DNA of 63,845 nt, the filler included. It is 6 parts of 6 records of this genome, joined end to end, with 100 filler letters (N's around TTAATTAATTAA, not from the genome) between each part and the next. Parts side by side here need not be neighbours in the genome. Positions count along the whole stretch, not along the records: positions 60,769 to 63,845 come from SRR20825010_3524; 5 more parts are not named here. One strand, given 5' to 3'. Under the pieces are notes generated by a model. The model saw nothing but the letters and a program-made list of their open reading frames with translations, had not been told where the DNA came from and did not search any database. Made by a program: the position numbers and the translations under genes. This document shows, one piece after another, positions 1,543 to 63,845 of this stretch (position 1 is its first letter; every line of letters starts with the position of its first letter).

Positions 1543-4500
1543 TTAATTCCCCGCCGGCACGGTGACCGAGCCCGTATCGGCGATGGTGAACTTCCAGTCT
1601 TCGGCCTGCGTCCCCGCGAGATTGAGATTCCCGCCAAGGAAATAGAGCCGGTCACGGTCCTTGCCCTTGGCCGTGCAGAACCGGTCCTGCAGATAGAAGG
1701 GCGGTGTCGCCTGGTAGGACAGTCGGGCACGGACCGAAACCGGTGCACCGGCAAGATCCGCCAGCGGAACCGCGTAAGTCAGCTTGTCCCCGCCACCGGT
1801 CTTGTAGTCAGGATCATTCCCGACACCGAGAGATCCGGCATCCTCAGCCATATCCGCACCGGCTCCCAATGCCGCCGCGATCGCCTTGCGCTGGTCGAGC
1901 GGGAGGTAGCCGGTCGGCAGCAGCCTGTTATCCTTCACCTCCGCGCAGATAGACAGGAACGAGGTGGTCAACTGGCCTTCCGGCTTTGCGTCATGACCGC
2001 ATTGCGGATTCTTGGAGCCTGGCTTCGGCGTGCTGACCAGTTCCTGATAGATCTGCACCTGATCCTGCCGCGTGATGAGCTGGTGGTGCGGCTGGTGCAG
2101 ACGTTTCTCCGGCTCGATCCGGGCCGAACAATCGTCCTCCCACCACATCTCGCCCGGCAGAGGATCTCCTGATGGATCAAGAATCCTGCCTGCACCATCG
2201 GTCTTGCCGGAAGACCAGATCACATTGCCCAGCCGGTCCATGACATCGAAGGTCACGAAAGCCCGCCGGAAGCCAACCCCGGACGGGAACTTGTGCCCGA
2301 CATGATTGGTGATGGAAACGTCCGCCTTGAGGATTGCTGTGTCGGGATCTACAGCGACGTTGGTGACAGCAAGATCGGCCGTGGCCTTCGCTGCCTGATC
2401 CAGCATCTTCTGCTCGGTATAGATCAGAGGATCCATGCCCTTCTTGCCCATCATCGGGTCCTGGGTCCTGATGCCGAGCACGTCCGGGAACTGCTGCGCC
2501 ATACCGGTGAGGAAGACGTTAAGCCCGACCAGCGTGTGCTCCGCAAAGCCCTCGCGCACCGGCAGGTCGATTTCATCCGGCCCGCGATTGAACTCGGCCT
2601 GCGGGAAATTGGAGAATTCCTGGATGCTCGCGATCCGCGACTTCACCGGCTCCCCGTCCGCCGTCTTTGACGGCATGTGACAGTCCTGGCAGCTCTTTGA
2701 GATGGAGCCCGCCCCTTCGGGCAATGGCCCGTCCGGCGAAGTGCCGGTGCGATAGGCACTGAAGGCCCATTCCGGATAGGTCAGCTGCTCATAGACATGA
2801 CCGACGGTCTTGCCTTCATGCATCACCGGCAGGTGAACCGTGTGACAGGTGCCGCAGGTCTCCGACATGGCAAGCGTTGTGTTGTGTGCGGGCTTGTTGC
2901 CGAGGGAGTCCAGCATGGGAGCGGTCTTCGGATCCTCGAACGGCCCGAAGATCGTCTCCGGACCACCGACCAGGAACGAGCCGGTGAAGGTTTTGGCAAA
3001 CCCGCTTACATCCGGATTGAGAAAGGCCTGCCGCTCGACCACGCATTTGTTCTCGGGCCGCTCCTTCACCTCGTTGGAGATGTTTTCGCCCAGCACCATG
3101 CGATGACAGGACGTGCAGGAGATACCGTCCCGGGCCAAAGCCCCGTAATCGGCATATTCGACATGCTCGTTCCTGGCCTTTTCCGATGGCCACGGGGTTG
3201 CCTCAACAACCTCCCGGGTGAAGGCACCACAACCGGCGGGGTCCTCATCCTTCGGCATCGTCGCGATCGGCTCGATCTTGCCGGTACTGACATCGATGCC
3301 GTACTGACGCTGCCCCAGAATGCCGTGACAACCGAGGCAGGTATTCTCGACCAGCTTCGCCTTACCTTTGTGGAAGGTCTGGGTCTCGCTCGCAAGCTGG
3401 GCGAAGAAAATCGGATCGCGCCCGGCCAGCCCCATCGGCGAGGTTCGCCAGGAGCCATAGGGAGAATGGTTCCACATCTTCCCGGCCGCGGCATCCGAGC
3501 CGTCGCCGTAATCGGGAGAGACAGGCTCCGTCATATCGAACTGCAGGCCCGTACTGCCCGCATCGTGGCAACCAAGACACTGGCTGGAGGTCAGGTATTC
3601 GTCATGGATCGTCGGGCCACCGGCGGCGACAAAGGTTTCGTCATACGTCTCCGACGGCATCTTCGGAACAGTCTCATAGTCCGGAGCCGCCCCGGGCCCA
3701 TTCCACTGAAAGGCCTCCGTGAATGCGGGGTTATAGGCATAAAGTGGCTGTCCCAATCGCCGGACCTGATCGGTCGGCAATGTGACGACCGGATGGTTCG
3801 AGGCCGTGTCCGGCGTCGGGTCCTCGTCCTGATTGAGGAACACCAGCGGATGCCCCGGCTCCCCCTCGATATTCTTCTGCGAGGAAAAGGTCATGTTGTC
3901 CCGGGCGGAGGCGTGACAGTTCATGCAATATTGCGCGAACCCCATATTGACCATCAGGTTCGATGACTGGTTCGCGGGATAATCGGGAGCCCAGCCGTTC
4001 CAGCCGAACCATCCCCAGAACCAGCCGTCATGGCTCTTCTTCGAGTCCCGCACCATGATCGCGGCGCCGTGGATGTTCGGGATCAGTTTCTCCGGCTCCA
4101 CCGCGGAGCAGACCGATGCCGGAGAGGAATACATCTCCTTCACCATGATCGCGCCATCCGGCACCGGTGCTTTATCCGTGTCCGCATCCTCGTCCGCCGG
4201 AGTCCGGTTGTCCTTGATCCAACCGAACATTTCCGGCGAGTACCAGATCACCACCGGCGCATGCGTGCCATGATAGGTCCCGATCCACTCACCACCGGTC
4301 AGGTGCGCCGTTTCAGGACCGGTATCGCGGACATACTTGTCCCGCACCCAGCCGGACGTCTTGTCGCGATGGCAGAAATTCACGAAATATTCCTGCAGCT
4401 TCAGTTCGTATTCCCGCAACGGCAACGCGGAAGGGTCACGCACGACGGGATCCAGTTTCCGGCAGAGCTCAAGATCATGTGGTAAAACCGGAACATTCTG

Positions 4501-60638: not shown

Positions 60639-60668
60639 TGGTGCCCAGGAGAAGACTCGAACTTCCAC
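60639..60668 (-). tRNA. 3' end of a tRNA, most likely tRNA-Leu (truncated; anticodon not visible)
   Basis: Reverse complement GTGGAAGTTCGAGTCTTCTCCTGGGCACCA: T-arm, acceptor strand and CCA. Confidence 0.8.
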
Positions 60669-60768
60669 NNNNNNNNNNNNNNNNNNNNNNNNNNNNNNNN
60701 NNNNNNNNNNNNTTAATTAATTAANNNNNNNNNNNNNNNNNNNNNNNNNNNNNNNNNNNNNNNNNNNN
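60669..60768. other. Artificial contig linker
   Basis: N44-TTAATTAATTAA-N44. Confidence 0.99.
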
Positions 60769-60769
60769 A

Positions 60770-61654
60770 TTATATCCTGTAATAGATAAGCTCTCTGTTA
60801 CCATCCCTGTCGTCGAAGAAGGCCATAAAGCCATCGATGAAGCGTTGAAGGATATCCACAAAAACGAAAAAAATTTTTCGTCGGTTTCCGCAAAAGGCAA
60901 ACGGTATAAGAAAAACATTGAGTGGGCAGATAAGGAGACCGGGCAAAAGGTCCTTATCCAATGCGACCCCGTTTATGCAAAAAACTATCTGCGCTTTGAA
61001 CTGAACCCCGGGCGATTGGGCCCTGAGGGGATGAGCCGGTTCAAGAAAATCCTTGAAAACAGTATCACTGTCGGGAACTACCCTTATTCCCGAATTCTGG
61101 AGGAAGGTCGTATATCCCGGATGGATATTGCGGTTGATATGATTAATGTCGCGCCGCATGAGCTTATCGTTGCGGGAAAGGATACCGGAAAATCGATCAG
61201 GTTTTTGGGGAAAGGTTCCAACGAGCTCGAAACAGTCTATCTCGACAAACCGAAAACCAAGTCGAGCAACAAAATGGTTTACAACAAACTTCAGGAACAG
61301 ATCGATAAGGGAAATAAACCGAGCTACAATGAGGTTCTGCATACACGGGTGGAATATACTCATTCAGGGGCGCCGTTCGGCAATAGCCCCAATATACAGA
61401 ACCCCTTCAGGAAAATGACAATCATCAATCCTGTTGTCGTGCCTGAGAACGGAGAAGATTTTGTCTGGCATCTATTCCTCAACAGTTGCCGTCTAAAGGG
61501 CATAGAGGCCTCTCTGAGCCTTCTTCCGGACCATTTACGCCCCTCATACAGAGAGGCTCTTGAAAAAGCCACTGAGAAGACGTGGCGGCCGGAAAAGTTG
61601 TGGGAGAAATGGAAAAATTATCTTGTCACGTCGAAGGTCCTGACAAGCGACTGA
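60770..61654 (+). CDS. Rep_trans/phage gpII-like replication initiator or relaxase (5' truncated)
   Basis: Frame open to the contig edge (LYPVIDKLSVT...); ordered motifs IDKLSVT, FELNP, ISRMDIAVD, ETVY, VYNK..EQ, TRVE. Confidence 0.7.
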   Translation, partial: LYPVIDKLSVTIPVVEEGHKAIDEALKDIHKNEKNFSSVSAKGKRYKKNIEWADKETGQKVLIQCDPVYAKNYLRFELNPGRLGPEGMSRFKKILENSITVGNYPYSRILEEGRISRMDIAVDMINVAPHELIVAGKDTGKSIRFLGKGSNELETVYLDKPKTKSSNKMVYNKLQEQIDKGNKPSYNEVLHTRVEYTHSGAPFGNSPNIQNPFRKMTIINPVVVPENGEDFVWHLFLNSCRLKGIEASLSLLPDHLRPSYREALEKATEKTWRPEKLWEKWKNYLVTSKVLTSD

Positions 61655-62156
61655 AAGACGTTCCCCATATTCCCGAAGGCTGGTTATTCCCGGCACCGGA
61701 AAACGGAAAGTCGTTATTTTCACAACGTTGGGATTTGAAAATCCATGGAGCTTATCCCGGAGTACGCCGTTGATGAATCTGATTAAAAGATTTTTGGGGG
61801 CGAGAAGAATGTCCCTCAGTAAAGGAAAATAAACCAACCTATATATCGGCAAGGAGTATACACGAAAGACCAGAGCATAGATTAGAACCACAGAAAAAAG
61901 CCTGTAACTACATCCCCATGCTCTGGAGTGCCAGAGGCTATCTATCGGTTGGGAAGAACAAACAATAGATGTGTAGCTGAGTACAAGCATAGTACATGAA
62001 GTATCCCTCTACCCTCTGGTAAAACCGTATTAACACTAGAACCATTTATTATAGAAGGACTGGACGAGCGGTATGCGATGGTATTCGATGAGAGTGTAGG
62101 AGTATCGAAATTGCCTGAGTATCGGGATAAACCGTGGTAGTCCAGAACGTCTTCAA

Positions 62157-62306
62157 GTGTCCCATCAGGTGTCCCATACAAGGCCATGTCGAAGTTGTTC
62201 AAAATCGGTGTTTTTCACTTTATGAAAACAGTATGTAAGTCTTTGTGATAATTTGTATTTCTCCATGTATAAACATACCCGCCAAATAGTGCGCACTGTG
62301 GGACAC
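62157..62306. repeat. GTGTCCCA(T) motif: two direct copies and one inverted copy
   Basis: GTGTCCCAT at 62157-62165 and 62169-62177; TGGGACAC at 62299-62306. Confidence 0.6.
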
Positions 62307-62531
62307 ATAAATCGAAATATTCCACCAAGGAGAAAAGCATGATGATGAAGGCGTAAGGGGGCATAGCCTCAGAGAGCCTCATGATTTTTCCGCCGGAATT
62401 CTGTGATTTATCTTCGTATAAAATCAGAATACTGCGACGCTTTCTCCTTTACCAATGATGTCAATTCTTTAACGTTAATAGTGGGTTTGAAGCTCATCGA
62501 CCTCCCCCGGAAACTCACGGAGGAGAACGAT

Positions 62532-63629
62532 ATGAACAAAGACCCCATTCTCGATATATACTGCCGTCAACTTGCTGATCTGGTCAGTGAGCAAAGCTAC
62601 GAACCACCCTGCATAAATCCCCTCAATATCTCGCCTTGGCTCGCCATGAGCCTGATGCAGAAAGCGATCCGCAGGGGCGAGATCGAGTACGCCCTGAGAG
62701 GCGCCGCAACGCTTCTTGAAAACTCACCGGACAGGTTATGGCGTCGGCTCTGTGTCACCGCCTTTGAGGACATCGGTGTCGCCGATACGGAAACCGTCTC
62801 ACTGGTGATGGCGGGACTGTCGGGAAAATACTGGCGAAGCCGCAACGGAGGGGACTGGCGTATCGCAAGTTATCTGGTCCGGCGCATGACAAAATCCGTC
62901 AAATGCCGCTCCGCCGATGATCTCGCCTATATTGCGGAACGGCATCCAGCCTTTGAAACAGACCGCCTGCGCCTGACCTTTGAGCCGATCCCGAAACTGT
63001 TGGATATTGTTATCTCGAATGCGGCTCTTCCCAAGAGAGCCCTTGCGCTCTGGTATGCCATTGGCACCCATCGTTGCCGGTCGGATATCCTCCGGCTTCG
63101 CAAGGGCGATCCCCATGGTGTTTTGGATGTGCTCTGTGAATTAGGCTTTCCCGATACGTTGATAGAAATCAGCCGATCCGGCCTTGCCAAATGCGGCGAG
63201 ATACTGGTGCCCTTTGTTCCGCTGCTTTGGCGGGAGTTGCAGACGTCTGCAAGTTCCATCGAGGAGATATCCCTCCCCCGCCCGGAGATGGTTGGCGGTA
63301 TTCCGGCATATGCCTATGACATGCATACCCGTGAGGGCAAGCAGGCGATCGGGCTATTCCTGAAAGGCAGAAGCGACACGGTTCACTGGCTGAAGGATCT
63401 AAGCCCGCCTGCCAAGCAGGCCTATCTGCTCGGGCATATGATCTTCCGGATTGAGAGCGGTTGTCTTGACCGTCGGCTGCAATGGGAGACGGGAGACAAG
63501 CTCTGGCGTATGAGTGATCTTGAGATGCATGGATACAGGCCGCAGGAGATGGTGGAAGGATTATGCCTTCTCCGTCACGACCTGCCGCTTCTGAATAAGG
63601 CGCGCCGTCAAATTGCGGGAGACGCCTGA
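62532..63629 (+). CDS. Protein with a RarA/MgsA C-terminal-like domain and no AAA+ ATPase
   Basis: SLMQKAIRRG...A...LWRRLCVTAFEDIGVAD; later AYDMHTREG; no Walker A; ATG 62532 follows GGAGGAG. Confidence 0.7.
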   Translation: MNKDPILDIYCRQLADLVSEQSYEPPCINPLNISPWLAMSLMQKAIRRGEIEYALRGAATLLENSPDRLWRRLCVTAFEDIGVADTETVSLVMAGLSGKYWRSRNGGDWRIASYLVRRMTKSVKCRSADDLAYIAERHPAFETDRLRLTFEPIPKLLDIVISNAALPKRALALWYAIGTHRCRSDILRLRKGDPHGVLDVLCELGFPDTLIEISRSGLAKCGEILVPFVPLLWRELQTSASSIEEISLPRPEMVGGIPAYAYDMHTREGKQAIGLFLKGRSDTVHWLKDLSPPAKQAYLLGHMIFRIESGCLDRRLQWETGDKLWRMSDLEMHGYRPQEMVEGLCLLRHDLPLLNKARRQIAGDA

Positions 63630-63845
63630 TGCATGTGGAGAACGACAGTCTTACCCGATCATGTGCGATTAATTGCAAATCCGGCAGTGAAAAATCGTCA
63701 GCGAACTCGATTGCAGTTAATTGCAATCCCAGAAATGACATAAGTTCGGTAGGGGAAGTTGCAATTAATTGCAAATCGTCCCTTGGACGCTCTCAATCAA
63801 GTGAGCGTACCTCCGTTCTAACCTCCGATAATCTCCACTTATCGG
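63629..63845 (+). CDS. Candidate translationally coupled ORF, open at the window end
   Basis: TGATG overlap; GGGAG 7 nt upstream; 72 codons without a stop (MHVENDSLTRSCAINCKSGSEKSSANSIAVNCNPRNDISSVGEVAINCKSSLGRSQ...). Confidence 0.55.
   Translation, partial: MHVENDSLTRSCAINCKSGSEKSSANSIAVNCNPRNDISSVGEVAINCKSSLGRSQSSERTSVLTSDNLHLS
63663..63774. repeat. Three 16-bp palindromes at an exact 48-nt period
   Basis: GTGCGATTAATTGCAA (63663), TTGCAGTTAATTGCAA (63711), TTGCAATTAATTGCAA (63759); unrelated 32-nt spacers. Confidence 0.9.

Follow-up and report, generated by a model that had tools for sequence, protein, structure and literature searches.

The DNA described here is a stretch of 63,845 nt (the window), at whose right-hand end lies a two-gene unit: gene R, for a stand-alone protein resembling the C-terminal domain of RarA/MgsA, and, overlapping it, the beginning of a tyrosine recombinase (YR) gene that holds three copies of a 16-bp palindrome, P, followed by a dyad, D. 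We present here a computational analysis of this unit and its relatives, and propose that P and D may together form a composite site-specific recombination site in the N-terminal codons of the recombinase, D serving as core and the P array in an accessory capacity, a proposal that we rate about evenly between right and wrong. An artificial linker at 60669-60768 (an N run, TTAATTAATTAA and a second N run) joins two contigs within the window. The palindromes therefore lie on a separate contig of 3,077 nt (60769-63845), which has a lower G+C content, and adjacency across the linker is meaningless. For comparison, 80 genomic and 6 metagenomic loci with R homologues were retrieved, and R was located in 79 of them. 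P was counted in 85 related loci (784,019 nt) and D in 1.02 Mb of loci.

Gene R (62532-63629, plus strand) ends with the TGA at 63627-63629, which overlaps the ATG of the YR gene at 63629-63631 (TGATG). The sequence GGGAG, read as the ribosome-binding site, lies 7 nt upstream, so that the start signal spans 63617-63631 on the plus strand. The same GGGAG and ATG stand at the R stop in loci L081, L082 and L083, and downstream starts overlap or abut R in most of the 55 loci examined. The initial annotation had reported this coupled frame as open to the contig end and reading AINCK, AVNCN and AINCK, and direct reading agrees: the frame is open for 72 codons and gives CAINCK, IAVNCN and VAINCK at the three palindromes. 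These 72 codons align with the N-termini of the nearest full-length YRs (L081, L082, L083 and L111), so the frame (63629-63845, plus strand) is the start of a gene for an Xer-like tyrosine recombinase, cut by the contig end before the PF00589 catalytic domain. Over its final 31 nt the window matches L081 without a difference (100% identity).

Full-length homologues were found at L081 7310-8404 and L083 3644-4765 and in L111. PF00589 scores 70.1 bits in L081, 69.6 in L083 and 63.2 in L017 (cut-off, 27.1; family range, 47 to 70), and the SAM-like N-domain PF02899 scores 23 to 25 bits in the L081, L083 and L111 homologues. The catalytic columns R204, K231, H313, R316, H339 and Y348 are invariant in an alignment of 24 sequences (A3), and by these residues the recombinase is catalytically complete. 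Assignment of the L081-type recombinase to the XerC or XerD equivalogs of NCBIfam was rejected (XerD, 56 bits against 329.6; XerC, 52.7 against 335), as was assignment of the L081 recombinase to the integron integrases (no match to TIGR02249; XerA/integron model, 49.9 bits against a cut-off of 220). Used as a query, the 72-aa window fragment recovered no longer relatives, its sole match being a 1710-aa repetitive protein (P0121).

The three palindromes were found on rescanning at the positions, and with the exact 48-nt start-to-start period, first reported for them: P1 at 63663-63678 (GTGCGATTAATTGCAA, two mismatches to TTGCAATTAATTGCAA), P2 at 63711-63726 (TTGCAGTTAATTGCAA, one mismatch) and P3 at 63759-63774 (the perfect palindrome TTGCAATTAATTGCAA). 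The window holds no further match to the 16-mer within three mismatches, so none at 63615 or 63807, as had also been stated. Shuffles give an expectation of 0.44 matches per window, and 1 of 100 shuffles gave three, unclustered. The 32-nt spacers had been called unrelated, a description that holds only in part: units 1/2 and 1/3 share 12 to 13 of 32 positions in the window (null mean, 8.2; 99th percentile, 14), and units 1/2 of L082 share 17 of 32. This likeness makes an old tandem duplication of the 48-nt unit likely, and by sequence comparison the period is a clade feature, probably derived from it, and not a general rule. Three copies at 48 and 48 nt are kept in the window's own contig and in L082, L083 and L111, the last being the second contig of the metagenome-assembled genome (MAG) record that also holds L001. 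The array of L081 is decaying, with one copy split by a 6-nt insertion, and other arrays of two to four copies have spacings of 33 nt (L025), 36 nt (L052) and 63 nt (L081). A paired-site scan of 185,579 species' genomes yielded 49 loci with spacings of 34 to 62 nt, of which 39 nt was the commonest (8 loci), and the YR family lies within 1.5 kb in 19 of the 49. Three of the 49 (L103, L120 and L133) are 10-nt microsatellites and were rejected as sites. The two-copy pattern was found in no viral contig.

P is conserved as DNA rather than as peptide. Its information content is limited to a 14-bp core, TGCAATTAATTGCA, and one base on either side. The 85 loci contain 19 perfect and 53 one-mismatch copies of this core, against 0 and 0.2 in local shuffles, and 47 of them hold at least one copy. 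Among perfect 14-mer palindromes with a TTAA centre in the loci, the P core occurs 25 times, TGAAATTAATTTCA twice and three others once each. The variant TGAAATTAATTTCA, a symmetric double change affecting both halves, replaces the P at the R-recombinase junction in L010, L012, L014, L038 and L070. The 19 junction copies within recombinase ORFs read A[IVL]NC in 17 and LQ[LS]IA in 2; in L108, one ORF runs through two identical copies at a distance of 46 nt and reads one in each of the two frames; and P copies also occur between genes. Orthologous spacers of the window and L082 are identical at 15 to 17 of 32 positions, and the palindromes are near-perfect. The codon choice GCA ATT AAT TGC is expected for 1.65% of AINC peptides from the genes' own usage. 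Because homologous loci keep the palindrome, in two frames and between genes, the alternative raised in the initial annotation, a selected Cys-containing peptide repeat, is refuted. Across these loci the palindrome is kept, the 48-nt spacing holds only in the window's four-member clade and the peptide is not constant. By this pattern of conservation, P is selected as DNA and is a site of the type that a symmetric protein would bind.

That much agrees with the earlier suggestion of sites for a dimeric protein, possibly encoded by the same ORF: the sites are symmetric at the DNA level and the ORF encodes a recombinase, as its relatives in L081, L083 and L111 indicate. The ParB-like form of the suggestion is not supported: no ParA or ParB family was found by Pfam among 72 + 87 + 55 neighbouring proteins. 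The first of these scans covered 72 of 97 listed ORFs and left out L049 and L013, of which L049 was scanned later. Counted genome-wide, perfect P occurs 26 times in 8 of 10 genomes (G007 and G008 hold none), and 22 of the 26 copies lie within or beside the R-recombinase island; reversed-pattern controls gave 0. Within the library searched, the 14-mer core was found in no paper; a 12-mer was matched once, in work on Salmonella Typhi with an unrelated subject. A half-and-half site, TGCAATTAATTTCA, stands at G006:C46:135168 (L094 4569). The two other sites of that genome are of the TGAA variant, and the mixed one could have arisen by recombination between two site types or by simple mutation.

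Adjacent to the array lies D, an element absent from the initial annotation and a better crossover candidate than P. It is the dyad CTCCGATAA-TCTCCAC-TTATCGG at 63823-63845 (plus strand), found with the pattern GATAA-N7-TTATC, and its right arm is cut by the contig end. Each 9-bp arm consists of a 4-nt outer arm and GATAA or TTATC, around a 7-nt pyrimidine-rich spacer; inverted arms around a spacer are the layout of tyrosine-recombinase core sites. The pattern occurs once in the window against 0.03 expected. In the 1.02 Mb of loci, 37 matches have a 7-nt spacer, against 0, 2, 2 and 1 with spacers of 5, 6, 8 and 9 nt. The outer arm bases are complementary in 51 to 68% of copies, against 25% by chance, and differ by lineage (CTCC/GGAG, TCGC/GCGA, CCGT/ACGG and TTGC/GCAA). 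The spacer is pyrimidine-rich on the coding strand in 32 of 32 forward copies and purine-rich in 5 reversed ones. D encodes LTSDNLHLS and underlies the conserved N-terminal motif LT[SR]DNxxLS[DR]P. An unbiased codon test was confined to the recombinases that have the peptide [DH]Nxx[LI]S, 24 of 49; in these, Leu is TTA in 24 of 24 (6.2% in gene bodies) and Asp is GAT in 16 of 16 (46.8%).

D is also linked to P and to the island. A degenerate D pattern occurs exactly once per genome in five of five genomes (2.9 to 8.7 Mb), always inside the island. Among the 20 loci that hold both elements, 15 have D 43 to 89 nt from a P, on either side. The D-P offset is exactly -67 in the window's contig, L017, L081, L082, L083 and L111; in the window the first GATAA base lies 67 nt past the start of the 14-bp core of P3. 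D-P pairs also occur far from a recombinase start, out of frame and interrupted by stops (L057 9312/9366 and L092 784/838); these distal D sites (L057 9312 and L092 784) sit 54 nt before a P. Two features of a composite site are thus present: an inverted-arm core with a 6-8-bp asymmetric spacer beside the recombinase gene, in the form of D, and repeated motifs within about 100 bp of the core, in the form of one to three P copies per array.

In 43 of the 79 loci with R, the next, overlapping ORF encodes a tyrosine recombinase of 320 to 370 aa; in 9, a serine recombinase follows R instead. P is present in 31, D in 26 and a certain 30-mer in 0 of the 43 tyrosine-recombinase loci, and in 7, 0 and 9, respectively, of the 9 serine-recombinase loci. 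In the remaining 27, where a contig end cuts the locus or R has no recombinase beside it, P is present in 12 and D in 7. D thus tracks the tyrosine recombinase and the 30-mer the serine recombinase, and P occurs with both. The 30-mer, GTAACACAYAAACCAACCTTTACCTGTTAC, occurs once per locus at the R-recombinase junction and is likely, from its position and form, to be the site for the coupled serine recombinase. It has inverted ends (GTAACA...TGTTAC), stands directly behind R and shows 0 to 3 mismatches (L026, L027, L028, L033, L042, L043, L044, L067 and L073). Among close serine-recombinase relatives P moves, lying inside R (L026 and L028) or inside the recombinase gene (L027, L043 and L044), and one copy is always kept. 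In the five serine-recombinase genomes searched, all seven exact P copies lie in the locus or at most about 600 nt from it.

R is the best, if imperfect, candidate for the protein that binds P: in five genomes with P arrays R was found in 0 of 5, and the YR family in only 2 of 5. The proteins encoded next to the first P of the islands were compared in search of a common one: the seven candidates are 14 to 17% identical, which is noise. P resembles an ARG box, and the idea of ArgR as binder was rejected, as ArgR is absent in five of five host genomes; the control was found in 9 of 14. Gammaproteobacterial P arrays without R were also seen, at L119 1205-2428 and L130 1501-1586. In L119, a P pair lies inside a truncated DUF6538 integrase ORF beside rho; in L130, three P copies occupy the start of an HTH_23 gene, with an integrase gene 820 nt before them.

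The islands open with an integrase (DUF6538-type, P4-like or Int_N-type) and one gene, and P copies partition the remainder into blocks: restriction-modification (R-M) systems, AIPR with DUF4420, Dsr2 defence, AAA_15/DUF4276, a lanthionine synthetase, an arsenic pump and an 11.25-kb mercury/copper module. L082 has, in order, a DUF6538 integrase, a 338-aa ORF (3099-4115) with a P in its first codons, R, three P copies with D, and the recombinase, and judging from it the window's clade fits this general plan. P copies bracket R-M genes (L057), Type I R-M genes (G006 and G010), a Dsr2 system (L081), AAA_15/DUF4276 (L017), a lone reverse-transcriptase gene (L090 6573-8012) and a TPR/TCAD9 module (L088). 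The cargo behind the recombinase in L081 (8510-12468) is a Dsr2-type SIR2 defence gene, apparently split into ORFs of 358 and 961 aa.

In G002, two P copies whose flanks run in the same direction enclose the 11.25-kb mercury/copper module. L081 shares the left-flank genes of G002 and has a single P, followed by the flank that comes after the second G002 copy. The pair is suggestive of an insertion at P but is not a clean empty-site comparison, because the flank is itself a repeated element of 55 to 190 nt. This conserved stretch starts exactly at P, always on the same side, and holds a twice-repeated ACTGGTACA; it was seen at L087 741-930 and 11995-12182, L088 6340-6492 and 10200-10384, and L081 14815-15000, with four copies in one genome. 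A Rhodobacterales unit of leader, R and recombinase is 90% identical between genera; one of its boundaries lies 24 to 45 nt on the right-hand side of P, the other precisely on the stop codon of the recombinase. Of 2390 BLAST high-scoring segment pair (HSP) ends, 55 lie no more than 50 nt from P, a modest enrichment over the 29.4 expected; none of 200 randomisations gave more than 47.

We propose, as the best-supported reading, that the P array and D together form a composite recombination site in dispensable, Ser-rich N-terminal codons of the YR gene, directly behind the coupled partner gene R. D, with its 9-bp inverted arms, 7-nt asymmetric spacer and single copy per genome, would be the core at which the recombinase most likely performs crossover. 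The P array, 43 to 89 nt away, would be an accessory or architectural part, bound by R or by the recombinase, and, from its position within the operon, may also hold down expression of the recombinase. One D per genome would suit a one-site-per-replicon task such as resolving multimers of an excised island or capturing incoming DNA. Both recombination at D and the accessory role of P are what we infer from the arrangement of the sequences.

Several observations weigh against this proposal. Among the 43 tyrosine-recombinase loci, 12 have no P within one mismatch and 17 have no D by the strict pattern. The tyrosine-recombinase family was found in 0 of 5 serine-recombinase genomes (subject to a caveat on the search tool), yet P is present there; P arrays occur with neither R nor the YR family in G011, G012 and G015; and no single encoded protein tracks P. 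Paired-site spacings overall run from 33 to 63 nt and have no common helical phase. D was found without a second copy to pair with in all five genomes searched, and no rearrangement was observed; the substrate of D could be a multimer, an excised circle or incoming DNA. Homology breakpoints between related loci fall 24 to 45 nt to one side of P and not within it. Finally, the borders of modules hold many solitary P copies with no D. An accessory role leaves such copies unexplained, and this keeps alive the rival idea of P as an exchange joint.

That idea takes two forms, neither of which we consider likely. In the first, R would recognise P and recruit whichever recombinase is coupled to it, tyrosine or serine, so that P would be the joint of a recombinase-agnostic module exchange; we put this at perhaps one chance in five. 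If it is true, the islands capture, stack and swap P-bracketed defence and metal-resistance modules, as an integron-like platform built from unrelated parts. The second form, to which we give similarly low weight, makes P itself the crossover or capture site, with modules gained, lost and swapped between P copies in the manner of integrons or pdif modules and with the array as primary entry point. It would account for the discrete cargo bracketed by P in L057, G006, G010, L081, L017, L090 and L088, for the metal module between two P copies in G002 where L081 has a single one, for the mixed site TGCAATTAATTTCA in a genome otherwise with TGAA-type sites, and for the excess of HSP ends near P. 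The breakpoints, however, are near P and not in it, the repeated flank makes the G002/L081 comparison unclean, and many loci have a single P. In addition, a perfect palindrome with 4 to 5 conserved bases per half outside a 4-6-bp centre is short for a YR core and directionless.

Somewhat less probable still is that P is solely an operator, with R, the recombinase or another island protein repressing the R-recombinase operon and cargo promoters and with no part in recombination. Loci that lack a junction copy have P 78 to 226 nt upstream of R (L025, L029, L030, L032, L040 and L041), other non-junction copies lie inside R or the recombinase gene, and many stand-alone copies lie 9 to 112 nt upstream of a gene start. 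Each half of P also resembles, by eye, a -35 hexamer, and P shifts within the module among close relatives with one copy kept. Some copies, however, are placed behind 3' ends or where two genes converge (L052 8328, L087 741 and L088 10371), no regulator gene is common to all islands, and P is tightly linked to D. P may also be an operator, alone or in addition to a part in a composite site.

We think it improbable that P and D act as single-stranded hairpins of DNA or of mRNA whose shape is what is recognised, as with integron attC sites. A single-stranded DNA fold of 63655-63845 has P1 paired to P3 and hairpins at P2 and D (-32 kcal/mol, z-score -4.6), and the D arms covary while staying complementary; but a fold is found for any palindrome and the z-score is thus of little weight, P is kept in sequence and not just in pairing, and the strand-specific pyrimidine bias of the D spacer is as expected of a duplex core site. 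Selection for A-I/V-N-C every 16 residues, or a parS role for ParB, can be set aside as highly improbable: the frame is open through all three copies and probably translated, but the same DNA is read as LQLIA elsewhere, in both frames of one ORF and between genes, with a 1.65% codon choice, and no scanned neighbourhood has ParA or ParB.

R, the partner gene in the composite-site proposal, encodes 365 aa and was identified by ORF calling, Pfam, AlphaFold and VIA-align. The initial annotation had called it RarA-C-like, and structure comparison points the same way. Pfam MgsA_C scores 20 bits on the window R, under the cut-off of 27, and 31.9 bits, over it, on the L056 homologue. In an AlphaFold model (mean predicted local distance difference test score [pLDDT], 92.6), residues 32-140(-240) align with MgsA/RarA C-terminal fragments at VIA-align Z scores of 10.5 to 12.8, against at most 6.6 for unrelated rows; by Foldseek the likeness is weaker. 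On this model R is predicted to have an MgsA_C-type fold. It has no AAA match in Pfam, and structures align only at the MgsA C-terminal fragment, so that no AAA+ ATPase module was found. The C-terminal half has only weak fold matches (Z about 4). R is 84% identical in L081, 78% in L082 and L083 and 88% in L111. None of its 380 homologues has a functional name; apart from the MgsA_C likeness, no family name was found in Pfam, NCBIfam, PADLOC or PHROGs, and an Atlas search gave unnamed clusters only.

In the wider clade of the window, a reverse transcriptase of 411 to 430 aa precedes R (L081 4191-5996, L017 3133-4950, L001 1280-3085 and L083 665-1957). Generic reverse-transcriptase models match it, and the defence groups UG4 and UG17 match weakly. 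An HNH-like endonuclease follows it in L081, L017 and L001 and is missing from L083, and the window and L082 have an unrelated ORF in place of these genes. Rfam found only tRNAs in L081, L083, L017 and L090, with no group II intron or retron RNA beside the reverse transcriptase.

The ORF upstream of R in the window (60770-61654, plus strand) is cut at its 5' end and belongs to no known family by ORF calling, Pfam and comparison with L082, where its homologue is the 338-aa ORF after the integrase. Between it and R, about 870 nt (61655-62530; 41 to 46% G+C) hold no convincing ORF, and the counterpart in L082 is only about 300 nt. Rfam has no family match in this interval, and on the 3,077-nt contig as a whole it gave nothing except one sub-threshold microRNA match; a blastn comparison of the contig with plasmids gave 0 matches. 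Around the end of the 60-kb contig, ahead of the linker (60640-60768), the sequence looks by eye like the 3' part of a minus-strand tRNA gene, and ARAGORN reports none.

The window's contig starts 64 nt past the position of a P in L082 and ends at the right arm of D. Similarly, one MAG has a contig end about 65 nt ahead of P1 and another contig's start within P1 (end of L001, start of L111). Population heterogeneity at the sites could underlie such breaks around P and D, as could low coverage alone, and the sites are offered here as a reason for the tendency of assemblies to break there.

If the model of a composite site holds, these loci represent a hitherto undescribed family of modules for site-specific recombination, spread widely through the Alphaproteobacteria (380 R homologues and 99 genomic loci). 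It would be unusual in that both DNA sites lie within the recombinase's own coding sequence, that a replication-repair ATPase's tail domain, standing free, serves as helper and that the same helper pairs with either great class of recombinase. The sites punctuate anti-phage and metal-resistance islands and so would give handles on island assembly, two short motifs and two proteins, and the P and D motifs are a simple annotation marker for such islands.

The proposed arrangement can be compared with four known systems. In TnpI/IRS, exchange takes place at a core, IR1-IR2, beside DR1 and DR2, motifs with an accessory role (PMC2847244). The likeness lies in a tyrosine recombinase whose site is at its own gene, with an inverted-repeat core and adjacent repeated accessory motifs, and the difference in that the accessory motifs of TnpI/IRS are direct repeats of the recombinase's own motif, whereas P and D are unrelated sequences (PMC2847244). 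Here, moreover, the sites are inside coding sequence and there is a separate coupled partner, R, and the context is a chromosomal island instead of a Tn3-family transposon. TnpS and TnpT of the Tn4651 group, at rst, are a tyrosine recombinase and an unrelated helper with two inverted-repeat pairs (PMC7157771). The resemblance is in a helper of no known family and in two different inverted-repeat pairs with exchange at one of them, and the contrast is that tnpS and tnpT are divergent with rst between them, whereas the genes here are co-directional and translationally coupled (PMC7157771). Unlike TnpT, R has a RarA-tail fold, and a tblastn search of 72,556 plasmids with R gave one weak, unrelated match, so within that search R is not a plasmid-borne relative of TnpT.

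XerCD acts with accessory proteins at the plasmid sites cer and psi (bioRxiv 10.64898/2026.02.23.706985). These have one site per replicon and a resolution function, and the arrangement proposed here is like them in having an Xer-type core flanked by sequence for accessory proteins. It differs in that the recombinase is encoded by the element and scores 56 bits against a cut-off of about 330, and in that the accessory protein of cer, ArgR, is absent from all five host genomes tested. Integrons and pdif modules have short sites by a tyrosine recombinase gene and further copies that bracket accessory or defence genes, and P is similarly placed by the recombinase gene and around accessory and defence genes. 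An attC site, however, is an imperfect hairpin defined by structure, whereas P is a perfect palindrome conserved in sequence, and integron cassettes are single and promoterless, whereas each of the blocks here holds several genes, on either strand, with promoters of their own.

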